Shown here piece by piece: positions 6,250 to 39,501 of a stretch of 64,000 nt of DNA. The notes below the pieces were generated by a model, which saw only the letters and a program-made list of their open reading frames with translations, was not told where the DNA came from and ran no database searches. The stretch spans positions 292,238 to 356,237 of the forward strand of contig CAVSCX010000003.1 of NCBI GenBank assembly GCA_963726615.1, written 5' to 3'. Every line of letters begins with the position of its first letter. Position 1 is the first letter of the stretch. Both the position numbers and the translations under genes were made by a program. Source of the stretch: an uncultured Actinomycetota bacterium (lineage in GTDB: Bacteria; Actinomycetota; Actinomycetes; JACCUZ01).

Positions 6250-6902
6250 CACGCCGCGCCCACCGACAGCCTCCGAACGGCACCCGCGAACGCCGTCCCC
6301 GGGGCCGCCCGTGCCACGGCGACCGCGTCGGCTGCCCGGTCGACGTCCCGCTGCTCCGGCAGCGCGGTCACCCGCAGCCCCTCCTCGCGCAACCTGGCCA
6401 GCTGCTGGGCGCCGGTGTCCCCGCGCGACATCGGGACACCCACCACGTGCTCCGCGCGCGGCCGGCGCAGGCCCATGGCCCACCACCCGCCGTCCTCGGC
6501 CGCGCCGAGCACGGCGTCGGTCCCGTCGCACAGCAGCTGGTCGACCGCGTCGTCCAGGTCGGCGGCGGTGACGTGCGGGGTGTCCATCCCGACCAGAAGG
6601 ACCGGGACCGGCAGGTCGGCGAAGGCACCTGTCATCGCGGCCGCGATCCTCCGGTCCAGCGACCTACCGGCCTGCGGTCGGACCTCCAGTCCCGCCGGCA
6701 GCCAGTCACCGGGCGCACCGTCGAGCACCAGCCGGCAGTGCTGCACCGCCGCGGCGGTCGCAGCGGCGAGAGTGTCGGCGAGGGCGGCCGCCGCGAGCTC
6801 TGCGGCCTGGTGCGGCGTGTACGGCGGCGTCAGCCGGGTCTTGACCCGACCGGCCACCGGACTCTTCGCCAGCACGACGACCTGGGCCCGGCGCGTCCTC
6901 AT
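6249..6902 (-). CDS. DUF2064 / TIGR04282-like nucleotidyl/glycosyl-transferase family protein
   Basis: 217 aa from MRTRRAQVVVLAKSPVAGRVKTRLTPP.... 4-nt ATGA overlaps at both ends (6899-6902 and 6249-6251). Confidence 0.7.
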   Translation of the reverse strand: MRTRRAQVVVLAKSPVAGRVKTRLTPPYTPHQAAELAAAALADTLAAATAAAVQHCRLVLDGAPGDWLPAGLEVRPQAGRSLDRRIAAAMTGAFADLPVPVLLVGMDTPHVTAADLDDAVDQLLCDGTDAVLGAAEDGGWWAMGLRRPRAEHVVGVPMSRGDTGAQQLARLREEGLRVTALPEQRDVDRAADAVAVARAAPGTAFAGAVRRLSVGAA

Positions 6903-7549
6903 CCGGCGAGCACCGCGCGCATGTCGCGCACGGCGCGCAGGTAGCCCGGCACCGTCCCTGTCACCTTCGACCGGCCGACCCTGGGGAGGTAGGTCACCGG
7001 GACCTCCGCCACCCGCCAGCCGGCGGCATGTGCGGCGAGCAGCGTCTGCAGCGGGTAGCCGGAGCGCCGGTCGCTCAGCCCGAGACCCAGCAGGTCCTCG
7101 CGCCGGAAGGCACGCATGGGGCCGAGGTCGCGCAGCGGCAGCCCGGTACGGCGGCGCAGGGTGCGCGCCAACGCCAGGTTGGCGAGCCTGGCCGGCAGCG
7201 GCCAGGCGCGCAGGGAGCGGGTGGTGCGGCGGCCCACGACGAGGTCCGCGGTGCCCTCGAGCACCGGCCCGGCCACGGCGGGCAGCTCCGTCGGGTCGAG
7301 GGTCGCATCGGCGTCCATGACGCACACCACGTCGCTGGTGGCGGCCAGGAGCGCGGCATGGCACGCCGCGCCGTACCCACGCTGCGCGACCTCGACGACG
7401 AGGGCCCCGGCGGCACGGGCCACGTCGGCCGAGCCGTCGGCCGAGCCGTTGTCGGCGACCACCGGCCGGTAGCCCGCCGGCATCCGCCCCAGCACCCACG
7501 GCAGCGCCTCGGCCTCGTCCAGGCACGGGAGAAGGACGTCGACGGTCAC
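6899..7549 (-). CDS. Family 2 glycosyltransferase (DPM1-like)
   Basis: 216 aa. LLPCLDEAEAL...VVADNGSADGSAD...VCVMDADATLDP, a GT2 DxD region. First gene of a three-gene overlapping operon. Confidence 0.75.
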   Translation of the reverse strand: MTVDVLLPCLDEAEALPWVLGRMPAGYRPVVADNGSADGSADVARAAGALVVEVAQRGYGAACHAALLAATSDVVCVMDADATLDPTELPAVAGPVLEGTADLVVGRRTTRSLRAWPLPARLANLALARTLRRRTGLPLRDLGPMRAFRREDLLGLGLSDRRSGYPLQTLLAAHAAGWRVAEVPVTYLPRVGRSKVTGTVPGYLRAVRDMRAVLAG

Positions 7550-29112: not shown

Positions 29113-31467
29113 TCAGACCACCGCCCCGCTGCCGTCGCGCTGCGAGGAGCGACCGGTGGGTCTCGACGTCCGGACCGGAGGCGGCGGCGAGGGGCTGCGC
29201 CGCTCCAGCTCGATCGCCAGCGGGGCGGCGGTGAACATCGAGGAGTAGGTGCCGACCGCGATGCCGATGAGCAGTGCGATGGCGAAGTCCGTCAGGGAGT
29301 CGCCGCCGAGGACGGCGAGCGCCGCGAGGATGAAGACGGCACCCAGCCCGGTGTTGACCGTACGGGGCACGGTGCTCAGGATCGCGGAGTTCACGACCCG
29401 GTCGAACCCGCGACGTCGCTGGGAGCCCCACAGCTCGCGCACCCTGTCGAAGACGACCACCGAGTCGTTCACCGAGTAGCCGATGACTGTCAGCAGGGCG
29501 GCGAGGAAGACGCCGTCGATCGGCTTGCCGAGCCAGGCGAAGACACCGACGAGCACGAGCACGTCGTGGGCCATGGCGCCGACAGCGGCCGCGCCGAAGG
29601 TCCAGCGGAACCGCACCGCCAGGTACAGCAGCTGCACCACCAGCGCGACCCCGAGCGCGATGAGCGCCTTGCGGCGTAGCTCGTCGCCGAGGCTGGGCCC
29701 GATCAGCTCGTCGCGCTGCTTGACGACGTCGCCACCGGATGCGTCGGCGAGTGCGGCCCGCACTTCGGCCTCCTGGTCGTTGGTCATGTCAGCGGTGCGG
29801 ATCGAGATGTCGTCGGCTCCGCTCTCCTGCACGACCGCCCGCGGGAAACCAGAGTCCGAGACGACGGCTCGGGCCTCGTCGACGCTGATCGGCGCCGTCG
29901 TCGAGTACTCGACCAGGCGGCCGCCGGTGAACTCCACCCCGAGGTCGAGCCCGCGCCAGCCGATGCCGGTCAGGGCCAGCACCAGTGCCGCACCGGACAC
30001 GGCCAGCCACCGCCTGCCCAGGCGCATCAGGTCGGGGTCCCGCCTGGTGAGCCAGCTGCGGACCCGCCCGGGGGTGGAGATGCCGGTCACGCCGGGTCGC
30101 CGTACGACGGCTTGTCGACGCACCACCCAGTCGGCCAGCACCCGGGTGATGACCAGGGCCGACACCATCGAGGCGAGCACGCCGATGCCGAGGGTCACCC
30201 CGAAGCCGCGAACCGGGCCGGACGCCAGGTAGAACAGCAGGGCAGCCGCGAGCAGCGTCGTGACGTTCGAGTCGATGATCGCGCTCCACGCGTTGCGGAA
30301 GCCCGCAGTCACGGCCTGGCGCAGACCCTTGGCCGGCTCGGCGGCGTACTCCTCCTTCGCGCGTTCGAAGACGAGGACGTTCGCGTCGATCGCCATGCCG
30401 ATGGCCAGCACGAAGCCGGCCAGCCCCGGCAGCGTGAGCGTCGCACCGAGCCACGCCAGGGTGGCGTAGCTGATGAGCGCGTAGCTCGCGAGCGCGACGA
30501 CCGCCAAGGCACCGAGGAGCCGGTACACCACCATGATGAACACGGCGGTCAGGGCGACGCCGATGAGGGCTGCCTGCGCGCTCGCCTCGATCGCGGCCGC
30601 ACCGAGGGTGGGGCCGACGGTGCGCTGCTCGATCACCTCGACCGGCACCGGCAGCGCGCCACCACGGATCAGCACCGCGAGGTCCTTCGCCTCGTCCGGG
30701 GTGAAGTCACCGGTGATCTGGGTGGCACCACCGGCGATGCCGACGTCGCAGGCCACGGACGGGTCGACCTGCGGCGACGAGATGACCTGGTCGTCGAGGA
30801 CGATCGCGACCCGCCGCTGCGGGTCGCCCGGCGGCGCGCAGGCCGCGGTCCCGGTGAGCTGCTGCCAGGCGGAGCCGCCGGACCCCTTGAAGTCGATGGA
30901 CACGTACCACCCGCCCAGTCCCTGCGGGTCGATCTCGGCGGACGCGCCGTCGACGCCGTCACCGGTCAGGGCGGCCGGGCCGAGCTGGATGTCCTGACCC
31001 GTCTCGTCCGGCAGCACCACGGCGTCGCCGGGCTCCGTCGGCTGCTGCGACGGCTGGTCCGTCGGCGAGGGTGAGGACGTGGACCCCGGTGGCTGCACAC
31101 CCTGCACCGGGTGGAAGGTGAGCTGGGCCGTACGGCCGATCACGTCGGCGGCCTCGCGCGGGTCCTGCAGGCCGGGCAGCTCGACGATGATGCGCCGGTC
31201 GCCCGAGCGGGTCAGCGTGGGCTCCGCGATGCCGAGCGCGTCGACCCGGCGCCGCAGCACTTCGACAGCGCGGTCGGTGGACTCGGAGTCCGCGGTGACC
31301 GTGGCCGAGTCCCTGGTCTCGAGGACGATCTGGGTGCCGCCGCGAAGGTCGAGACCGAGGCGGACGGGAGTCGTGGCGGTGATCCACACGGCACCGGCGA
31401 GGATGCCGAGGGCGACGAGCGCACGGACGACGGGTGCGGACACGGGTGCCTCCGGGGGCACGGGCAC
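29113..31467 (-). CDS. secDF: Fused protein-export membrane protein SecDF (SecD and SecF in one polypeptide)
   Basis: 784 aa, GTG start. SecD periplasmic (LGLDLRGGTQIVLE) and TM regions followed by SecF periplasmic (LGVEFTGGRLVEY) and TM regions. Confidence 0.8.
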   Translation of the reverse strand: MPVPPEAPVSAPVVRALVALGILAGAVWITATTPVRLGLDLRGGTQIVLETRDSATVTADSESTDRAVEVLRRRVDALGIAEPTLTRSGDRRIIVELPGLQDPREAADVIGRTAQLTFHPVQGVQPPGSTSSPSPTDQPSQQPTEPGDAVVLPDETGQDIQLGPAALTGDGVDGASAEIDPQGLGGWYVSIDFKGSGGSAWQQLTGTAACAPPGDPQRRVAIVLDDQVISSPQVDPSVACDVGIAGGATQITGDFTPDEAKDLAVLIRGGALPVPVEVIEQRTVGPTLGAAAIEASAQAALIGVALTAVFIMVVYRLLGALAVVALASYALISYATLAWLGATLTLPGLAGFVLAIGMAIDANVLVFERAKEEYAAEPAKGLRQAVTAGFRNAWSAIIDSNVTTLLAAALLFYLASGPVRGFGVTLGIGVLASMVSALVITRVLADWVVRRQAVVRRPGVTGISTPGRVRSWLTRRDPDLMRLGRRWLAVSGAALVLALTGIGWRGLDLGVEFTGGRLVEYSTTAPISVDEARAVVSDSGFPRAVVQESGADDISIRTADMTNDQEAEVRAALADASGGDVVKQRDELIGPSLGDELRRKALIALGVALVVQLLYLAVRFRWTFGAAAVGAMAHDVLVLVGVFAWLGKPIDGVFLAALLTVIGYSVNDSVVVFDRVRELWGSQRRRGFDRVVNSAILSTVPRTVNTGLGAVFILAALAVLGGDSLTDFAIALLIGIAVGTYSSMFTAAPLAIELERRSPSPPPPVRTSRPTGRSSQRDGSGAVV

Positions 31468-32079: not shown

Positions 32080-32550
32080 TCACGCCTCGCGGAGAGCCGT
32101 GGCGAGGGCCACGACCCCGAACAGTGCCACCGCGAGCACGTGCACGACGGTGCACCACAGGCAGATCGCGTCGACACGGAACAGCTCCGCCCACACGAGG
32201 TACAGGACGAACAGCGCGCCAGCCGCGACCGCGGTCAGCCTGGCACGGTGGACCGCGCCGACGCGCGAGCGCCAGGCAACCGGAAGGCAGAGCCCCACCA
32301 TGAGGACGAAGAACGCCAGCCCGAGCACCGCCACGGGGACGCCGAGCAGCTCCGAGTAGGAGCTCGTCGTCACCTTCACGCAGTTGATGACACCGGTGTC
32401 CGGACAGGCGAGCGTGGTGGACGAGGAGTAGTGCTCCACGGTGAGGTACGCCGACACCGCGACGCCGAGCAGGGCGAGCGCCAGCGAGGCGGGGCCGGCC
32501 CACCGGGGGGCGCTGACCGTCACGCCGACCTCGGCAGGAGCGCCGCTCAC
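32080..32550 (-). CDS. Vitamin K epoxide reductase (VKOR) family membrane protein
   Basis: GTG start overlapping the upstream stop (GTGA at 32547-32550). CxxC in TGVINCVKV... and a second Cys pair (LWCTVVH). Confidence 0.7.
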   Translation of the reverse strand: MSGAPAEVGVTVSAPRWAGPASLALALLGVAVSAYLTVEHYSSSTTLACPDTGVINCVKVTTSSYSELLGVPVAVLGLAFFVLMVGLCLPVAWRSRVGAVHRARLTAVAAGALFVLYLVWAELFRVDAICLWCTVVHVLAVALFGVVALATALREA

Positions 32551-33473
32551 CTCGCCTGTGCCCCGGCGACCGCCTTCGCGGCGGCCGTCACGCCGGGCGA
32601 GGTGCACACGTCGGCGGGTTGCCCGGACGTGGCCTCGCACAGGGCCGCCGTGAGCACGTTGGCACTGCCGTCCACGGCCTTGGCGACCGGGCTGGTCGGG
32701 TCGGACAGGGACGCGGCGATCTCGGCCCGGGACATGCCCTTGAGCAGCTCCGGGCTGTAGGTCGCGCCGGACGTGACGTACTTCCCCGCCACGTCGAGGA
32801 ACGGGATGCTCCCCTCGGACGACGTGTACGGCGGCTTGTTGTAGGTCTGCACGATCTTCGCGTCCGCGGGGGCGAGCTCGTCCAAGGGCTCGTACACATC
32901 GCCGCTGCGAGTGTTGCCGGCGGTCTCGACCCCGGTGAAGGACAGGTAGTCGCTCGTGTACGCCGCGCCGTGGAAGGACAGCGTCTGGGTGTCCGGGTAG
33001 ACGTCCTCGGTGGCCGAGTGGCTCGCGCCGAGCCGGGACCACGTCCCGAACCGGGAGAGCGCCACCACGACCGGCCAGCGCTCCGCGGCGCAGTAGGGGC
33101 AGTACTCCGCACCGACGTAGAGGACCTTGGGCTTCCCGCCCTGCTCGAGCAGCGGGGCATCGATCTTCGCCGGCGCCGTCTGGGCGGCGCCGACACCGAT
33201 CGTGTCCAGGACCGCGGCGGGCACGTTCGTCACGTCGCGGACCACACCCGCCGCGGCGGGTCCACCGCTCGTGGCGCCGGTCGAGGGGCTGTCCGATCCG
33301 GACCCCAGCCCGGCCGCCTTGGCGACCACCAGGCCGATCACCACGACGAGGACGAGGCCGAGAGCCCCACCCGCGAGGAGAACGCGACGGCGCCGGGCGG
33401 TCCGCGCCTCGGTCGCTCGCATCGCGGCCACCCGCTCCCGACCGGCGGCCCTCGCGTCGACCCGGCTGCTCAT
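32547..33473 (-). CDS. DUF929 thioredoxin-fold (DsbA-like) protein, signal-anchored, CPYC active site
   Basis: Start at MSSRVDA... (alternative MRATEAR at 33422). YVGAEYCPYCAAERW. Confidence 0.7.
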   Translation of the reverse strand: MSSRVDARAAGRERVAAMRATEARTARRRRVLLAGGALGLVLVVVIGLVVAKAAGLGSGSDSPSTGATSGGPAAAGVVRDVTNVPAAVLDTIGVGAAQTAPAKIDAPLLEQGGKPKVLYVGAEYCPYCAAERWPVVVALSRFGTWSRLGASHSATEDVYPDTQTLSFHGAAYTSDYLSFTGVETAGNTRSGDVYEPLDELAPADAKIVQTYNKPPYTSSEGSIPFLDVAGKYVTSGATYSPELLKGMSRAEIAASLSDPTSPVAKAVDGSANVLTAALCEATSGQPADVCTSPGVTAAAKAVAGAQAR

Positions 33474-33588
33474 CGGTCTGCCTCCCTCGGCGCGGCGCAC
33501 ATCACGGTCCTGCAGGCTACGTCGTGCGCCTGGGCGCCGGCTGGGACAGACACCCGGCCGTGACCGGGCCGAGACACGGCCACCGGTG

Positions 33589-33858
33589 TCACCAGGCCCG
33601 CGGGTCCGGCCGGCGGCCCGGTCGGGCGGGGGTCGCGTCGGGTCCGGCCCGGCGCACCGAGGTGTCGTCCAGGTGCCGGCAGTCGGCGGCCGGCATCGCC
33701 CGCACGTAGGTCTGACCCGCTCCGGTCGTGTAGCGCACGACGACCCGCCAGCTCCCGTCGGAGCGGGAGCGGTACTGGTCGAGCAGCGTCGCGACCCGGA
33801 ACCGGCCGTCGTCGTGCGGGGCGAGGATCTGGGTGACGACGGCTCGGCCGGGTCGCAT
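33589..33858 (-). CDS. Hypothetical small protein (89 aa)
   Basis: Non-repetitive, beta-rich-looking sequence. No homolog recognised. Confidence 0.3.
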   Translation of the reverse strand: MRPGRAVVTQILAPHDDGRFRVATLLDQYRSRSDGSWRVVVRYTTGAGQTYVRAMPAADCRHLDDTSVRRAGPDATPARPGRRPDPRAW

Positions 33859-34018
33859 CGGGGCCTCTGGCGCGCTGGTGGCTGCTCGTGCAGCCGGACG
33901 GCTCGACCCCGGACGACCTGACCGTAGCGTGAGGCAACAGCCTCAGCGACGACGAGGGCCGGGTCGTGGCGACCCGGCCCTCGTCGACTCTCGTCGACTC
34001 TCGAAGATCAGTCAGCGA

Positions 34019-34092
34019 TCAGTCGTCGTCGCCGTCCTCGCCCTCGTCGTCGTTGTCGTCGTCGTTGTCGTCCTCGTCGTCGTGGTCGTCGC
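34019..34092. repeat. (GTC/GAC)n-type imperfect trinucleotide tract encoding the poly-Asp/Glu tail
   Basis: gtcgtcgtcgccgtcctcgccctcgtcgtcgttgtcgtcgtcgttgtcgtcctcgtcgtcgtggtcgtc. Confidence 0.6.
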
Positions 34093-34618
34093 ACTGCTGC
34101 CCGGAGCTCGCCGTGGGGGCGTCGTCCTCCTCTTCGCAGTCGTCGTTGCCGTTGTCGCCGTCGAGCTCGTCGTCGCCGGTGCCGCCGGACAGGTTGTCGT
34201 CGCCGCGGTTGCCGTGCAGCGAGTCGTCGCCGTCCTCGCCCCACTCGTCGTCGTCCCCGGTGCCGCCGGAGATGCTGTCGTCGTCCGACCCGCCGCGAAG
34301 CGCGTCGCGCCCGGCGAAGCCGAGGATCCGGTCCCGGCCGCCGCCGCCGAACACCCTGTCGCGCCCGCTGGACCCGCAGAGCAGGTCGTCGCCGCCGCGC
34401 AGCCGCACGACGTGGCCGGAGCTCTTCACCACGACGACGTCGCGGTGCCGGGTGCCTCGCACGACGTGCGCGGAGCCGGAGTCCACGACCATGGTCGCCG
34501 CCTGGCCGGCGCAGGTGGGGGTGGCCGCTGACACCGGCAAGGCCTGGTAGCCGAAGAACGCGAAGGGCAGCGTCGCGGTCAGCGACAGGGCGCGGAGCTT
34601 CTGCCGAGAGAGGGTCAT
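34019..34618 (-). CDS. Secreted calcium-binding RTX-type (GGxGxDxL) repeat protein with poly-acidic C-terminal tail
   Basis: Start at MTLSRQKLRALSLTATLPFAFFGYQALPVSAA (signal peptide). Repeats GGGGRDRILGFAGRDALRGGSDDD..GGTGDDDEWG..GGTGDDELDGDNGND. Tail DDNDDDNDDEGEDGDDD. Confidence 0.6.
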   Translation of the reverse strand: MTLSRQKLRALSLTATLPFAFFGYQALPVSAATPTCAGQAATMVVDSGSAHVVRGTRHRDVVVVKSSGHVVRLRGGDDLLCGSSGRDRVFGGGGRDRILGFAGRDALRGGSDDDSISGGTGDDDEWGEDGDDSLHGNRGDDNLSGGTGDDELDGDNGNDDCEEEDDAPTASSGQQCDDHDDEDDNDDDNDDEGEDGDDD

Positions 34619-34840
34619 GAGGGTGGGCTCCCGTGGTCCGGCCGAGTCGCTCGATGCGTCCGGCGTCGCAGATGTCATCGCGGAGCGCCGCTGCGGGGAT
34701 ACGGCTCAGGACGTGACAGTCGCCCGGACGGCGCATCGCAGACGGTTTCCGGGCGCACCGCGGGGCCACCGTTGGGCATCGCTTTGCCTGGGGGAAACCC
34801 GGACGTGGAATCGTGCTCAGCCCGGCGCCCGTACCTGTCG

Positions 34841-35485
34841 ATGGTGCTCTGGAACACGGAGCGAGAACGGTCGGAGGACGGCGTGGAGGAGGACCTGGAC
34901 CCGCTCGTCGACGCTGCTCGCGCCGGCGGCGGCCGGGCCTTCGGCCGGCTGTGGGAGCTGCTCGCTCCCCCGGTGGCCGCGTACCTGCGTCGTCGGCGGG
35001 TTCGCGACGTCGACGACGTCACGTCCGAGGTGTTTCTCGCCGCCTTCGCCGGCATCGGCCGGTTCGACGGCGACGGCCGGGCGTTCCGGGCGTGGGTGTT
35101 CACCATCGCCCACCACAAGAGCGTCGACGCCGCCCGCCGGGCGGGTGGTCGCGAGCTGCTGGTCGACACGTACGAGAGCACCGACGGGGACCGGGTCGCG
35201 AGCCGCCAGGACCTCCGCAGCGCGGAGGACGAGGCCGTGGACCGGATCGCGACGTCCGATGCCGTGCGCCGGCTGGACGTCCTGACCGAGGACCAGCGCG
35301 CCGTCCTGCTGCTGCGGGTGGTTGCGGACCTGTCGCTGGCCGAGACCGCCACCGTCCTCGGTCGACCGGTGGGCGCCGTCAAGGCTCTGCAGCACCGGGC
35401 GCTCGCCCGGCTGCGCTCCACCCTTGCCGGTTCACCCGACGCCGTATCCCCGCCGGCCGCCACCACGATGTGGAGGGTGAGATGA
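34841..35485 (+). CDS. ECF (group IV) RNA polymerase sigma factor
   Basis: Region 2 (FRAWVFTIAHHKSVDAARR) and region 4 (DQRAVLLLRVVADLSLAETATVLGRPVGAVKALQHRA). Confidence 0.8.
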   Translation: MVLWNTERERSEDGVEEDLDPLVDAARAGGGRAFGRLWELLAPPVAAYLRRRRVRDVDDVTSEVFLAAFAGIGRFDGDGRAFRAWVFTIAHHKSVDAARRAGGRELLVDTYESTDGDRVASRQDLRSAEDEAVDRIATSDAVRRLDVLTEDQRAVLLLRVVADLSLAETATVLGRPVGAVKALQHRALARLRSTLAGSPDAVSPPAATTMWRVR

Positions 35486-36288
35486 CCGACCTCCTCGCCG
35501 AGCTGCGCCGATCGACCCGACCGGGCGACGATCGGGTCGCCGACCTCTTGACGGTCCTGCGCGCCGGCGAGGGCGCGACACCGCGGGCCAACGAGCAGCT
35601 CGCCACCTTCCTCAGCGCACGGGTCGGCGGTGTGACGGCCCGGCCGGCGCATGAGCTGGACCCGGCAGAGCCCGAGCTTGTCGTGGTGCTCGGTCCGGCC
35701 CGGGTCGCCCGTCGGCCACGGCGCTTCGGTGCTGCTCTGGCCGGCGGCATCTGGGTCAAGGTCGCGCTGGGCGCGGCGGCCGCGGTCGCCGCGACCGCCC
35801 TCGCCGCTGGGGAAGGCCCGGCGCGCGACGTCGTGGTCCGGCCCGCCGCGAGCCCCACGCCCACGGCCCCCGCCGGCCCGCTGGCCGGTCCGGACGACGG
35901 CGAGCCCACACCGCGCGCCCGGCACCTGGCGCCCGTCGGCCCGACCGGCCCCCGGGACAGCGAGCGCGCATCGGCGCCCACCGTCCGACCGGGCTCCACT
36001 GCCGCGCCTGCGGCCGGGGCCGGCCCGAAGGCCGGCCACGACGAGCAGCGCGCGGGGCAACGACCCGGAGGGGGTCGGGACGACACCGGCGCCAGGTCGG
36101 GAGGGTCCGGCGGCATCGGTGCTGAGGCGGACGACGGGGACGAGGGCGATCAGGGCGGCGAGGGCGACGAGGGCGGCGAGGCCGACGGCGACGAGGTCGA
36201 CGGCTCCGGGTCGTCCGGGTCGTCCGGGTCGTCCGGGTCCGGGTCCGACGAGAGGCCAGGCTCGGCCGACGCCGACGGGGGCGACTGA
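35482..36288 (+). CDS. Putative anti-sigma factor (single TM) with Gly/Asp/Glu/Ser-rich low-complexity C-terminus
   Basis: ATG overlaps sigma stop (ATGA). GGAGGG RBS. 268 aa. TM FGAALAGGIWVKVALGAAAAV. Located in the C-terminal frame of track ORF 34813..36288. Confidence 0.55.
   Translation: MTDLLAELRRSTRPGDDRVADLLTVLRAGEGATPRANEQLATFLSARVGGVTARPAHELDPAEPELVVVLGPARVARRPRRFGAALAGGIWVKVALGAAAAVAATALAAGEGPARDVVVRPAASPTPTAPAGPLAGPDDGEPTPRARHLAPVGPTGPRDSERASAPTVRPGSTAAPAAGAGPKAGHDEQRAGQRPGGGRDDTGARSGGSGGIGAEADDGDEGDQGGEGDEGGEADGDEVDGSGSSGSSGSSGSGSDERPGSADADGGD
36208..36246. repeat. Tandem 9-bp repeat (GGGTCGTCC)x3 plus degenerate copy, encoding (GSS)n
   Basis: gggtcgtccgggtcgtccgggtcgtccgggtccgggtcc inside the anti-sigma C-terminus. 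Confidence 0.6.
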
Positions 36289-36446
36289 GTGCGCGCCCGG
36301 TGTCCGCTTCGTCATGCTCTCACCCGAACGGCGGTAAAGCGGAGGTCAAGAGATCCCGAAGCACACACCATGAACCTCCGCTGCAGCCCAGCCCCAGCTG
36401 CGCCGTCCGGGCCGTCCGGCACTGCCGGCGCGTCGGCGGTGTCCGC

Positions 36447-36647
36447 ATGAGCGAGGTCACGCGGCTGGCCGAGCGGCCCCTGCTCTCGGTCGCCGAGGCG
36501 GCGTCGTACGCCGGCGTCGGCCCCGAGCTGCTGACCGGCCTGCCGGTCCTTGTGGCGGACCCGTGGTCGCACGCCGACTCGCTCGTCGAGCGCCGGGCGG
36601 TCGACGCCTGGTGGCGCGAGCAGGTGCTCGCCCGCCCCGTCGCCTGA
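36447..36647 (+). CDS. Small hypothetical protein with HTH-like segment (66 aa)
   Basis: Internal ATG of track ORF 36300..36647. ...PLLSVAEAASYAGV... resembles excisionase/MerR-type HTH. Weak support. Confidence 0.3.
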   Translation: MSEVTRLAERPLLSVAEAASYAGVGPELLTGLPVLVADPWSHADSLVERRAVDAWWREQVLARPVA

Positions 36648-36692
36648 CCGGCCCGCCCGCGCGCCCTCCGCTGGGGTCGCGATGATGTCCGG

Positions 36693-37358
36693 GTGAACGG
36701 ACGGGTGCTGGTCGTCGAGGACGACCACGGCCTGCGCGACGTGGTGGCCCGCGGGCTGCGCGAGGCCGGCTTCGAGGTGACGACGGCGAGCGACGGGACG
36801 GGGGCCCTGCGCACTGCGGGGGCCGGGCAGTTCGACGTCGTGGTGCTGGACATCGGCCTGCCCGATGCGGACGGCCGCGACGTCTGTCAGGCGATGCGCG
36901 CTGCCGGGACCAGGGCACCGGTGGTGTTCCTCACCGCCAAGGACGGCGTCACCGACCGCCTGTCGGGCTTCGCCGCCGGCGGGGACGACTACCTGGCCAA
37001 GCCGTTCCACCTCGCGGAGCTCGTCGCCCGGCTGCGGGTCGCCGTCCGCCGCGGCGGGGAGCTCGCCGGGAGCACCGTCGGCGACCTGCAGGTGGACCCG
37101 GCCCGCCACGACCTGTCCGGACCGGCCGGGTCCGTGTCGCTGTCGCCCACGGAGTTCCGGCTGCTGGCCCGGCTGATGGCTCAGCCCGGCAGCGTCACCC
37201 GGCGGCACGAGCTCGTCGCAGCCGCCTGGGCCCATGGTTCCGTCGTCGCCGACAACACCCTGGACCAGTACGTCGCGAAGCTGCGCCGCAAGCTGGTCCA
37301 GGCGGGCAGCGAGCAGTCCATCGACACTGTGCGCGGCGTGGGCTACCGGCTCACGTGA
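36693..37358 (+). CDS. OmpR-family response regulator
   Basis: GTG start. VLVVEDDHGLRD...VVVLDIGLPDADG...LTAKDG. Winged helix TVRGVGYRL. Confidence 0.85.
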   Translation: MNGRVLVVEDDHGLRDVVARGLREAGFEVTTASDGTGALRTAGAGQFDVVVLDIGLPDADGRDVCQAMRAAGTRAPVVFLTAKDGVTDRLSGFAAGGDDYLAKPFHLAELVARLRVAVRRGGELAGSTVGDLQVDPARHDLSGPAGSVSLSPTEFRLLARLMAQPGSVTRRHELVAAAWAHGSVVADNTLDQYVAKLRRKLVQAGSEQSIDTVRGVGYRLT

Positions 37359-38683
37359 GGCGGCCACGCGCTCTGCGCAACCGGCTTGCCCTGGTCGCGC
37401 TGCTGAGCACCGGCGCCTGGGTGCTCGTGCTGACCGCCGTCTTCAACCTGCTGCTCACCGCACAGCTGAGCCGGCAGGCGGATGACGTGCTGCGCACCAG
37501 GGCAGCTGCTGTGGCCTCGACGGTGCTCGTGGCCGACGACGGGTCGGTGTCCCTGCGCGAGCCACCCAACGACGAGGCGCTGGACGCGGGGGTGTGGGTG
37601 TTCGCCGGGAGCACCGTGCTGGAGCAGCCGCGCGCCTCACCGACAGCCACCGCACAAGCCAGCCGGATGGCCTTGCGCGGCGGCCCGAGCTTCCGGGACG
37701 TGGCCGGCTCACCCACGGTCCGCCTGCACGTGCGCCCGTTGCGGCACGACGGGGCAAGGGTCGGGGCGATCGTCGTCGAGACCAGCCTGGAGCCGTACCG
37801 CCGGCCGTCGCGCGCGGCACTGGTGGGCTCGGTCCTGCTGGCGATGCTGGTGCTGGTCGGCGCCTTCGCAGCCACCCGGCAGGTGGTGCGCCGAGCCCTG
37901 GTGCCGGTGTCGGAGATGGCCGAGCAGGCGGCGCGGTGGAGCGCGCACGACGTCGGGCAGCGCTTCGGCGACGACCCGCGACCGGACGAGCTCCGCGATC
38001 TGGCAGGCAGCCTGGACGCCGTCCTCGACCGGATCGGCTCGGTGCTGCGGCACGAGCAGCAGCTGGCTGCCGAGATCTCGCACGAGCTGCGCACCCCGCT
38101 CGCCGTGATCTCCACCGAGACCGAGCTGCTGCTGTCGGGCGAGCGCGACGAGGACGAGCGACGGCGCGCCCATCGCGCGATCGCCGACACCGCGGACCGG
38201 ATGTCCACGCTGCTCGACGCCCTGCTCGCCCAGGCCGCCCAGGACGTCACCGAGGCGCCGGGGAGCTGCGTGGTCGCGCCGGTCGCCGAGCAGGTGCTGG
38301 CGTCGACCGGACCCTCCCCCACGACGTACGACGTCCAGGTGCCGGCCGACCTGGAGGTCGGCGTGACGGGCGACGTCCTCGCCCGCATCCTCATGGCGCT
38401 GGTGGGCAACGCGATGCGATACGCCGACGGGCGGGTCACGGTGGACGCTGTCCGGGCCGGGCACGAGGTGCGCATCCGCGTGCGCGACGACGGGCCGGGG
38501 GTGCCCGCCGCGTTCCGGGCCGACGTCTTCGAGCCGGGCCGCCGCGCCGAACCGGGTGACGGGCACCCCGGCGCCGGCCTCGGGCTGGCGCTGGCCCGAC
38601 GGCTGGCCCGCGCCGCCGGCGGGGACATCACCCTCGACGGCGACGCGGGGTCCGAGTTCGTCGTCGTCCTGCCACCCGCCTGA
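37355..38683 (+). CDS. Sensor histidine kinase
   Basis: GTG start overlapping RR stop (GTGA). Two TM. H-box AAEISHELRTPLAV. HATPase_c (LVGNAMRYA, GAGLGLALARR). Confidence 0.8.
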   Translation: MRRPRALRNRLALVALLSTGAWVLVLTAVFNLLLTAQLSRQADDVLRTRAAAVASTVLVADDGSVSLREPPNDEALDAGVWVFAGSTVLEQPRASPTATAQASRMALRGGPSFRDVAGSPTVRLHVRPLRHDGARVGAIVVETSLEPYRRPSRAALVGSVLLAMLVLVGAFAATRQVVRRALVPVSEMAEQAARWSAHDVGQRFGDDPRPDELRDLAGSLDAVLDRIGSVLRHEQQLAAEISHELRTPLAVISTETELLLSGERDEDERRRAHRAIADTADRMSTLLDALLAQAAQDVTEAPGSCVVAPVAEQVLASTGPSPTTYDVQVPADLEVGVTGDVLARILMALVGNAMRYADGRVTVDAVRAGHEVRIRVRDDGPGVPAAFRADVFEPGRRAEPGDGHPGAGLGLALARRLARAAGGDITLDGDAGSEFVVVLPPA

Positions 38684-38703: not shown

Positions 38704-39501
38704 TCAGAGCGCGCGGACCTCCTCGACGTCGACCCTGGTCGCGGTCAGGTACGCGACCAGCACGAGGATCGCGCCGAGGAACGCGTAGCTCGTTCCCGTG
38801 GTGCCGAGGCCGATCCCGCCGTGCTTGTTCGACTGCGACATCAGGTCGCCGATCGAGGCACCAAGCGGGCGGGTGAGGATGTAGGCCAGCCAGAACGTCA
38901 GGACAGCGTTGGCCTTGAAGCCGTAGTGCGCGACGGCAACCAGGGCGATCGCCGCCGCGAACAGCAGCACCGACACGCCGTACCCGAGGGCGAACTGCTC
39001 GCCCACGAGGTCACCCGCGGCGGTGCCCAGGGCGAAGGTGAACAGGATCGCCAGCCAGTACCAGCTCTCGCGGCGCGACGTCACGATGCTGTGGATCGAC
39101 AGCGTGCCCTCGCTGCGGTACCAGAGGGCGAACGTGCCCGCGAGCAGCACGGCGAACACCGCCGTGCTCAGCGGCAACGGCACGCCGAAGCGGTCAGTGA
39201 GGTTGTCCGTGAGCAGCGTGCCGACCACGCTGATCACGACAACGGCCGCCCAGTAGACCGGTGCCACGTAGCGGCGGCTGCGGAACTGCCCGACCAGCAG
39301 GACCACGAGCAGCGCGGACGTCGCCACCGTCGTCCAGGTGAGGCCGAAGCCGAGCGTGTCGTTGAGGTAGTCGGCGGCCGTCTCGCCGACCGTCGTGGCC
39401 AGCACCTTGATCAGCCAGAAGTACAGCGTGACCTCGGGGACCTTGTTCAGCATCACCCGCACGGCGTCGCGGCGCGGGCTCGTCGTAGATGTCTCAGTCA
39501 T
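38704..39501 (-). CDS. Uncharacterised polytopic membrane protein (COG4705-like)
   Basis: Start at MTETSTTSP within the longer track ORF. ~7 TM. Confidence 0.55.
   Translation of the reverse strand: MTETSTTSPRRDAVRVMLNKVPEVTLYFWLIKVLATTVGETAADYLNDTLGFGLTWTTVATSALLVVLLVGQFRSRRYVAPVYWAAVVVISVVGTLLTDNLTDRFGVPLPLSTAVFAVLLAGTFALWYRSEGTLSIHSIVTSRRESWYWLAILFTFALGTAAGDLVGEQFALGYGVSVLLFAAAIALVAVAHYGFKANAVLTFWLAYILTRPLGASIGDLMSQSNKHGGIGLGTTGTSYAFLGAILVLVAYLTATRVDVEEVRAL

Follow-up and report, generated by a model that had tools for sequence, protein, structure and literature searches.

A probable sigmaD/ShbA-type ECF sigma/anti-sigma module with a divergent RTX gene as its predicted local target in an uncultured actinobacterium

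This report concerns a putative regulatory module in a 64-kb stretch of DNA from an uncultured Actinomycetota bacterium (the window, meaning the whole 64,000 nucleotides analysed), in which the gene of a sigma factor of the extracytoplasmic function (ECF) class is followed by a gene for an anti-sigma-like membrane protein and stands divergent from a gene for a small secreted RTX protein. An earlier note, made from the letters of the window alone, had described an RTX gene divergent from an ATGA-coupled sigma/anti-sigma pair, and this layout was borne out, with every element found where the note had placed it. Two copies of a sigmaD/ShbA-type promoter motif at the locus, one facing the RTX gene and one in front of the anti-sigma gene, point to the RTX gene as a very probable direct target of the sigma factor. 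The G+C content across the window is about 74%, a typical actinobacterial value, and the closest public match is contig_1960 of the metagenome-assembled genome (MAG) "uncultured Solirubrobacterales bacterium MFD04212.bin.2.42", whose sigma factor is 95% identical to that of the window. The features of the module are as follows.

34019-34618, minus strand (stop codon included): RTX beta-roll gene with poly-acidic tail, 199 aa
34022-34132, minus strand: disordered Asp/Glu/Asn tail, residues 163-199 (composition and AlphaFold2 model, AF2)
34133-34519, minus strand: predicted beta-roll, residues ~34-162 (nonapeptide register and AF2)
34526-34618, minus strand: Sec signal peptide, residues 1-31, MTLSRQKLRALSLTATLPFAFFGYQALPVSA/A (read from the sequence; putative cleavage site)
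34673-34704, minus strand: predicted promoter of sigmaD/ShbA type for the RTX gene, CCGTATCCCCGCAGCGGCGCTCCGCGATGACA (-35 GTATC, -10 CGAT)
34805-34858, plus strand: block of conserved non-coding DNA immediately before the sigma start (alignment)
34883-35485, plus strand: ECF sigma gene, 200 aa, GTG start (Pfam r2 and r4)
35442-35473, plus strand: predicted sigmaD-type promoter inside the sigma 3' end, for the anti-sigma gene, CCGTATCCCCGCCGGCCGCCACCACGATGTGG
35482-36288, plus strand: single-pass anti-sigma-like membrane protein, 268 aa (ATGA coupling, topology)
35482-35736, plus strand: its cytoplasmic domain, three short helices
35737-35808, plus strand: its transmembrane helix, residues 86-109
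35809-36285, plus strand: its acidic disordered ectodomain, 158 aa

The sigma factor and the predicted twin promoters

The sigma factor contains sigma2 and sigma4 domains only (Pfam Sigma70_r2, 2.3e-12; r4/r4_2, ~2-4e-12) and scores 75.6 bits against the sigma70-ECF model TIGR02937, the cut-off of which is 42.9. Its true start is the GTG at 34883, since indels interrupt the upstream frame in the related locus L001 and a stop codon does so in L002. Among NCBIfam models ShbA/SigD (PRK09648, NF007230) scores highest, at 116.2 bits, followed by the BldN-family model at 81 bits (cut-off 206), and the best PDB matches are 6dxo (70 bits), 9isn (64 bits, with no label beyond "ECF sigma factor") and, from M. 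tuberculosis, SigD (3vep). Entry 6dxo is that of the RsbN-BldN complex, and its chain A is taken here to be BldN. By these matches the sigma factor falls in the sigmaD/ShbA/BldN neighbourhood, under the curated SigD/ShbA threshold, and every one of the 80 related genome loci is from a MAG or isolate of the Actinomycetota. In current ECF classification, SigD and ShbA are members of ECF40, an Actinobacteria-only group, and BldN is placed in ECF121 (PMC12019637, PMC7826278).

The lead towards a promoter was a bipartite motif, CGTA...CGA on the RTX strand, common to the intergenic regions of RTX-linked loci. Given the number of motifs tried, this lead is not significant alone; it became convincing because of an independent site at the sigma gene's 3' end and a cross-genome position weight matrix (PWM). 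With a looser regular expression, the motif also appeared at the sigma 3' end, before the anti-sigma start, both in the window and in 49 related loci, where a gapless alignment of the sites reads (G/C)(G/C)GTA(A/T)CCC-N14-(G)CG(A/C/T)T. The 64 kb contain exactly two occurrences of the pattern CGTATCCC-N15-CGATG, which equals GTAWC-N17-CGAT, against an expectation of 0.07 from dinucleotide-preserving shuffles, none of 100 of which reached two occurrences. For the PWM, 31 sites at the sigma 3' end of other loci served as training set, equivalent to 8.1 effective sequences (the window's own clade left out, with the window, L005 and L002 excluded), and a scan of both strands of the whole window ranked the hits as follows.

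34704, minus strand: rank 1, 16.8 bits, 5' of the RTX gene
35442, plus strand: rank 2, 14.7 bits, sigma 3' end
9389, plus strand: rank 3, 8.7 bits, an unrelated site elsewhere in the window

From the first of these sites, the RTX transcript is predicted to begin at about 34670 and to carry a leader of some 50 nt. The earlier note had proposed mapping a conserved ECF promoter of the AAC...CGT type upstream of 34618; in silico a site is present there, although its motif is GTAWC-N17-CGAT rather than AAC...CGT. At both sites of the window the motif reads GTATC-N17-CGAT, which fits the published ECF40 consensus.

Conservation among relatives follows the same two positions. In an alignment of the window with L001, L002 and L085, the RTX promoter site is invariant while its flanks diverge, and the equivalent RTX-side sites score 21.9 bits in L002, 19.2 in L085 and 15.8 in L059. 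The two best PWM hits in L001, L002, L085, L059 and L052 are in each case the sigma 3' end and a site facing the divergent gene; this gene encodes an RTX protein in the first four, and in L052 it is truncated where the contig ends. Within the sigma 3'-end site, the Val codon GTA is a rare one at a third-position G+C content of >90%, yet it is used in very divergent loci, and the spacer sequence drifts among loci while the -35 element, the -10 element and their spacing stay fixed; retention of a rare codon next to a drifting spacer argues for selection on DNA rather than on protein. In the clade of the window, the -35 element has T as its fourth base, where L059, L052 and the Solirubrobacterales loci have A. 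Taken together, the twin promoter-like sites, the PWM ranking and the recurrence in relatives make the RTX gene very probably a direct target of the sigma factor.

The PWM scan found no sigmaD-type site 5' of the sigma gene itself, and an unbiased enumeration of bipartite k-mers 5' of 78 sigma genes detected no shared autoregulatory promoter, returning clade-specific conservation inside neighbouring coding sequence only. A block of about 50 nt at 34805-34858 is near-identical in the window, L001 and L002 and partly so in L085, whereas the flanking intergenic DNA diverges; it contains no sigmaD-type site by PWM and no consistent coding capacity. It may represent the promoter of the sigma gene itself or else an operator, perhaps one for the neighbouring response regulator.

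The RTX protein, the anti-sigma family and their genomic setting

The RTX protein matches Pfam HemolysinCabind with an E-value of 8e-13 (48.5 bits, cut-off 23). It begins with a Sec signal peptide (a positive n-region, a hydrophobic core and an AXA-type site ending VSA/A) that is kept in L001, L002, L085, P0003 and P0004. A longer reading frame from an ATG at 34678 was rejected, as it is not conserved in L002 and overlaps the predicted promoter. The beta-roll has an N-terminal cap with the motif TPTCxGxxAT...CG and nine consecutive GGxGxDxLx nonapeptides (residues 82-162) preceded by a partial one, so that the three to four repeats counted in the earlier note were an underestimate. In the AF2 model (predicted local distance difference test score, pLDDT, 82.6; predicted template modelling score, pTM, 0.71), 14 three-residue strands follow one another at nine-residue spacing over residues 43-162 with pLDDT 94-98. 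A Foldseek search of the PDB gave as its top matches RTX blocks IV and V of the adenylate cyclase toxin CyaA (probability 0.98-1.0) and other Ca2+-dependent beta-rolls, with weak E-values (0.02). The protein is thus confidently modelled as a beta-roll, and Ca2+ binding would be expected by analogy with its family.

Beyond the roll lies the poly-acidic tail, which the note had put at about 70% Asp/Glu/Asn, a fair description: these residues make up 65% of the 37 residues of the tail and 83% of the last 24, and AF2 assigns the tail a pLDDT of 52-66. The tail is coded by GAC/GAT-rich triplet repeats (34022-34132 on the minus strand of the window; 4502-4610 in L001; 152-260 in L085). Its length and sequence vary among L001, L002 and L085, with 12 additional residues in L001, and such variation among close relatives suggests expansion and contraction by slippage.

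The second gene of the pair overlaps the sigma stop codon in an ATGA at 35482-35485. Its product carries RRPRR on the N-terminal side of the transmembrane helix, which argues for an N-in topology, and AF2 predicts helices at residues 2-10, 14-28, 38-48 and 86-109 (mean pLDDT 71.6, pTM 0.31). The Gly/Asp/Glu/Ser-rich acidic region that the note had described beyond the single membrane helix is real: Asp and Glu account for 19% of the ectodomain overall, and the last 70 residues are 30% Asp plus Glu, 33% Gly and 17% Ser. When 1.84 billion proteins were searched exhaustively with a profile of the N-terminal 125 residues, 30 cluster representatives came out, which share the motif (D)DLLxELRRSxDPxDRRLAxLL...PRAxExLAxFLA, a DLVVxLG element, an Arg-rich stretch, the transmembrane helix, VVVxPA and a disordered tail. 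An acidic ectodomain is present in all 27 of the 27 aligned representatives, with an Asp plus Glu fraction of 0.13-0.63 over the last 70 residues (median ~0.30) and a Lys plus Arg fraction of at most 0.10 in the C-terminal region. This alignment marks the acidic tail as characteristic of the family as a whole. The Pfam domain RsdA_SigD_bd (PF16751) has no match in the window protein, in 23 family members or in 10 anti-sigma proteins of related loci. We infer from context that the product of 35482-36288 is a sigma-binding anti-sigma factor, given its translational coupling, the position of a gene of the same topology 3' of the sigma gene in nearly all related loci, the topology itself and the sigma-type promoter in front. 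In Phytoactinopolyspora alkaliphila (L024, 5564-6748, plus strand), the ectodomain of the anti-sigma-like protein consists of about 25 tandem (K/N)PDE(N/H)PG repeats and is another extreme low-complexity acidic ectodomain of the family.

The full module, that is, the RTX gene divergent from sigma, anti-sigma, a small open reading frame (ORF), response regulator and histidine kinase, with a convergent DUF347 gene, is present in L001, L002 and L085. The anti-sigma protein of L085 is only 40% identical to that of the window, and an RTX/acidic orthologue and both promoter sites (19.2 and 19.8 bits) are nevertheless in place. Farther away, L010 and L011 share the divergent RTX/sigma-anti-sigma arrangement with a sigma factor 54% and an RTX protein 37% identical to those of the window, and in the Solirubrobacterales MAG L059 (sigma 41% identical) a four-repeat RTX protein is encoded divergently from sigma behind the 15.8-bit site. 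Being conserved in L001, L002 and L085 and recurring in other lineages, the RTX/sigma arrangement is no chance juxtaposition. Most related loci have a different neighbour beside sigma, and where a module-adjacent site exists elsewhere, it is followed by a gene whose small product is secreted or sits in the membrane. On this comparison, the RTX gene is best described as a recurrent, not universal, local target of the sigma lineage.

Several individual loci may be recorded beside this pattern. In Blastococcus saxobsidens (L084, 4140-4886, plus strand), the motif precedes a 204-aa repeat protein with 29% Asp/Glu, and in Cellulomonas (L008, 3714-4322; L009, 6392; L014, 6307-6950) it precedes Pro/Thr/Glu-rich secreted or anchored proteins, while the targets in L062 and L026 are not acidic, being basic or hydrophobic. 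L010 contains two paralogous sigma genes of the family (1582-2969 and about 6600-7100), one with its own anti-sigma gene and the second divergent from the RTX gene in synteny with L011. In a Marmoricola MAG (L004, 6001-7463), an RTX homologue directly adjoins a DUF347 gene in a locus without a sigma gene.

The module is set among the following genes.

29113-31467, minus strand: SecDF
32080-33500, minus strand: VKOR and DsbA-like DUF929 protein
33589-33858, minus strand: 89-aa ORF
34019-34618, minus strand: RTX protein
34883-35485, plus strand: ECF sigma factor
35482-36288, plus strand: anti-sigma-like protein
36447-36647, plus strand: 66-aa ORF
36693-37358, plus strand: OmpR-type response regulator (Pfam and NCBIfam)
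37355-38683, plus strand: histidine kinase (Pfam and NCBIfam)
38704-39501, minus strand: DUF347 membrane protein

Just past the RTX gene, a VKOR homologue and a DsbA-like DUF929 protein adjoin SecDF and represent an actinobacterial disulfide-forming pair, of which the RTX protein, with its four cysteines (C36, C81, C161 and C176), could be a substrate. The 89-aa ORF between the DUF929 and RTX genes has no family match and is kept in L001 (99%) and L002 (78%). On the other side, the 66-aa ORF between the anti-sigma and response regulator genes (MSEVTRLAERPLLSVAEAASYAGV...WWREQVLARP) is kept in L001, L002 and L085; Pfam and NCBIfam gave no match to it, and it gives the impression of a small helix-turn-helix protein of the excisionase type. 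The OmpR-type response regulator, the histidine kinase and the convergent DUF347 membrane protein accompany the module in four genomes as conserved neighbours. In NCBIfam, kinase and regulator come nearest to heavy-metal sensor systems (CztS/SilS/CopS), far under the cut-offs, and the PWM scan of the window placed no sigmaD-type site in front of the genes at 36447-38683. A 546-aa antisense ORF across the sigma and anti-sigma genes (34675-36315, minus strand) was rejected as a high-GC artefact: it matches no family, its G+C content at second codon positions is 0.72, and both synteny and family matches back the two genes opposite. A scan for sigma70-type promoters and intrinsic terminators over 33800-36800 found none, and an Rfam scan over 33000-37500 returned chance-level matches only.

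Proposed circuit and alternative readings

The evidence makes it likely that the locus is a module of the sigmaD-RsdA, ShbA or BldN-RsbN type whose local regulon consists of its own anti-sigma gene and the divergent RTX gene. In such a circuit, the sigma factor would be held at the membrane by the three-helix cytoplasmic N-domain of the anti-sigma protein until the disordered acidic ectodomain receives or relays an extracytoplasmic cue, whereupon the anti-sigma protein would be removed, probably by regulated proteolysis as for RsdA. The freed sigma factor would then use the two GTATC-N17-CGAT promoters: the one at the sigma 3' end would re-express the anti-sigma protein and so provide negative feedback, and the one about 50 nt 5' of the divergent gene would express the RTX protein as output. 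The latter would leave through the Sec pathway and fold into its beta-roll upon binding Ca2+, carrying the poly-Asp/Glu/Asn tail.

A number of results weigh against this reading. The sigma factor does not reach the ShbA/SigD cut-off of 209. The N-domain of the anti-sigma protein has no Pfam, NCBIfam or PDB sequence match, and neither sequence nor fold search links it to RsbN; a Foldseek search with its AF2 model gave no meaningful match, the pTM of 0.31 being too low for the model to be trusted. Comparison by hhalign with an 18-sequence RsdA alignment, which was seeded with an RsdA sequence that matches PF16751 at 6.3e-17, gave a probability of 4.3% and an E-value of 0.0095, with only the motif DPxDxxLAxLL...P(P/R)A(S/N) aligning locally. 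In L010 and L011 the promoter motif is degenerate (-35 GTGAC or GTACC, PWM <11 bits), and the closest named RTX homologue, that of Marmoricola L004, has neither a sigma neighbour nor a site. Of 20 mononucleotide shuffles of the window, 3 produced hits of 16-17 bits, so that the PWM score alone is no proof; the case for the promoters rests on the location in a 264-nt intergenic region, the orientation, the distance of about 50 nt to the start codon, the duplication and the conservation.

What the signal is, be it Ca2+, another cation or a defect of the envelope, is a matter of speculation. One candidate, which we rate a little short of an even chance, is a generic envelope-stress module like sigmaD-RsdA, in which the ectodomain would report wall or envelope integrity and the RTX protein would be one structural or surface protein of the regulon, its acidity being unrelated to the signal. 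The closest characterised relatives and the promoter type, both of ECF40, favour it (PMC12019637, PMC6338062), as does RsdA itself, whose disordered periplasmic domain of about 160 residues is a proposed sensor of envelope defects and which is released through MarP, Rip1 and ClpXP on envelope damage (PMC11175481). The assorted small secreted or membrane proteins found as targets in other loci agree with it as well. Nevertheless, these organisms are not known to have a mycolate envelope, homology to RsdA is not demonstrable, and the strong conservation of the acidic tail is left unexplained.

Another candidate is a cation-sensing module, as the earlier note had envisaged. Here the acidic ectodomain would bind Ca2+ or another cation, a change in occupancy would alter its conformation or protease sensitivity and free the sigma factor, and the induced RTX/poly-acidic protein would buffer or capture Ca2+ at the envelope, closing a homeostatic loop. 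Besides the acidic ectodomain of all 27 aligned family members, the reading is favoured by an output that is a predicted Ca2+-binding beta-roll with a tail of 65% Asp/Glu/Asn, by RTX targets in at least two lineages (three counting L010/L011), by the same promoter preceding other acidic secreted proteins such as that of L084, and by the adjacent two-component system being nearest to heavy-metal sensors, well under the cut-offs. However, acidic tails also occur in members whose local target is no RTX protein (L090 and L006), and family members without RTX partners weaken the argument from a shared ligand; the targets in L062 and L026 are basic or hydrophobic, disordered acidic ectodomains are common, and in sigmaD-RsdA the long disordered ectodomain has been tied to cell-envelope defects rather than cations (PMC11175481). 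On balance we consider cation sensing unlikely. The more specific proposal of an ectodomain Ca2+ sensor with an RTX effector, perhaps Ca2+-bridged to the anti-sigma tail, forming a circuit for extracellular Ca2+ homeostasis or capture, is more doubtful again.

Less probable than either is an operon like SigE-CseA-CseB-CseC, in which the gene after sigma would encode a CseA-like modulator and the downstream response regulator and histidine kinase would control sigma transcription. The order sigma, membrane protein, (small ORF), OmpR-type regulator, kinase is indeed kept in four genomes, the conserved block 5' of the sigma start would suit such control, and another regulator must drive the sigma gene because it lacks a sigmaD-type site upstream. 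Yet the sigma factor reaches only 57 of the 141.55 bits that the SigE-family model TIGR02983 requires and the CseB model gives 154.8 bits where 350 are needed, the second gene has the N-in, single-helix, lipobox-free and ATGA-coupled character of an anti-sigma factor, and the two-component system is missing from more distant sigma/anti-sigma loci. Control of sigma transcription by the two-component system may still be an added layer of the sigmaD/ShbA-type circuit.

Finally, that the RTX and sigma genes adjoin by coincidence, the site at the sigma 3' end merely reflecting coding constraint on a conserved C-terminal V-S-P and the intergenic copy being a chance match, is highly improbable: the former site does lie inside coding sequence, shuffles do occasionally attain similar PWM scores and the called anti-sigma start of Cellulomonas-type loci falls between -35 and -10, but the rare GTA codon in very divergent loci, the elements and spacing held fixed around a variable spacer, the recurrence of the same bipartite motif in the same register, in non-coding DNA and at a promoter-like distance from the RTX start in the window, L001, L002, L085 and L059, the match to an independently published consensus and the two occurrences against 0.07 expected all speak against it.

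Comparison with known systems

ECF sigma/anti-sigma pairs, the ECF40 promoter and feedback through the anti-sigma gene only are already known. What is new is an unclassified anti-sigma family beyond Pfam with a conserved acidic ectodomain and about 30 cluster representatives, together with an RTX beta-roll with a poly-acidic tail as predicted direct local target and an arrangement resembling the C. glutamicum promoter PrsdA spread across many non-mycolate Actinomycetota. Nothing relevant came up when the literature was searched for ECF sigma factors with RTX or calcium-binding proteins in Actinobacteria, and no case of a cation or Ca2+ as the ECF signal in such a circuit was found in the literature searched. 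If the promoters work as predicted, the locus represents a compact ECF circuit of one sigma factor, one anti-sigma factor and one secreted output in uncultured soil Actinomycetota, and the sigmaD/ShbA promoter logic, including the Corynebacterium-like anti-sigma-only feedback, would extend to much wider actinobacterial lineages. It would also be a concrete candidate in which to ask how a signal is sensed by a disordered ectodomain, and whether an ECF signal can be a cation; should the Ca2+ idea fail, the locus would simply be one more ECF module with a secreted target.

Among characterised systems, sigmaD-RsdA offers extensive parallels. The sigmaD factors of M. tuberculosis and C. glutamicum recognise GTAAC-N17-18-CGAT (PMC12019637, PMC6338062), and in C. 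glutamicum, sigmaD drives rsdA and not sigD, through a promoter, PrsdA (GTAAC-15 nt-CTCGAT), that is conserved in 37 of 38 Corynebacterium species (PMC6338062). In the window, likewise, an ECF sigma gene is followed by that of a single-pass anti-sigma-like protein with a long disordered ectodomain, a predicted sigma-type promoter lies before the anti-sigma gene (35442-35473) and none 5' of the sigma gene, and envelope or secreted proteins appear to form the regulon. The differences are that the -35 element of the window is GTATC rather than GTAAC, that the anti-sigma protein lacks a match to RsdA_SigD_bd and has a strongly acidic ectodomain, and that the predicted local target is an RTX beta-roll instead of a mycolate or cell-wall enzyme.

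A likeness to BldN-RsbN of Streptomyces lies in 6dxo being the best solved match to the sigma factor, and the three short helices that the low-confidence AF2 model places before the transmembrane segment recall RsbN. RsbN is a single-pass anti-sigma factor with three helices on flexible linkers, unlike other anti-sigma factors, and is itself a BldN target, other targets being the chaplins and rodlins, small secreted surface proteins (PMC6101532). In contrast to BldN, the sigma factor of the window has no N-terminal pro-sequence; helix alpha3 of RsbN is long (class III, clamped between sigma2 and sigma4), whereas helix 3 of the window protein spans about 11 residues, and RsbN homologues have been reported as restricted to Streptomyces.

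As regards the output, the window protein shares with the RTX blocks of CyaA, the C-domains of serralysins and the R-modules of AlgE the GGxGxDxLx nonapeptides, the HemolysinCabind match and the predicted parallel beta-roll. It differs from known RTX proteins in having an N-terminal Sec signal peptide instead of a C-terminal signal for type I secretion, no genes for such a system being present among the neighbours of the RTX gene, in its small size (168 aa in the mature form) without a catalytic or toxin domain, and in its N-terminal Cys-containing cap and poly-Asp/Glu/Asn tail. The NCBIfam RTX_toxin and serralysin models give 20-31 bits against cut-offs of 500-1000.

ShbA, finally, provides the best NCBIfam model for the sigma factor, and the ShbA-dependent promoter hrdBp1, CGTAAC-N16-CGATGA (PMC12019637), is almost identical to the RTX copy of the window, CGTATC-N17-CGATGA. 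Nevertheless, Streptomyces ShbA (ECF40s2) is encoded in a context that lacks an anti-sigma gene and drives hrdB, the gene of the housekeeping sigma factor (PMC12019637), whereas the sigma factor of the window has a coupled anti-sigma gene and, as predicted from the twin promoters, a secreted protein as its target.

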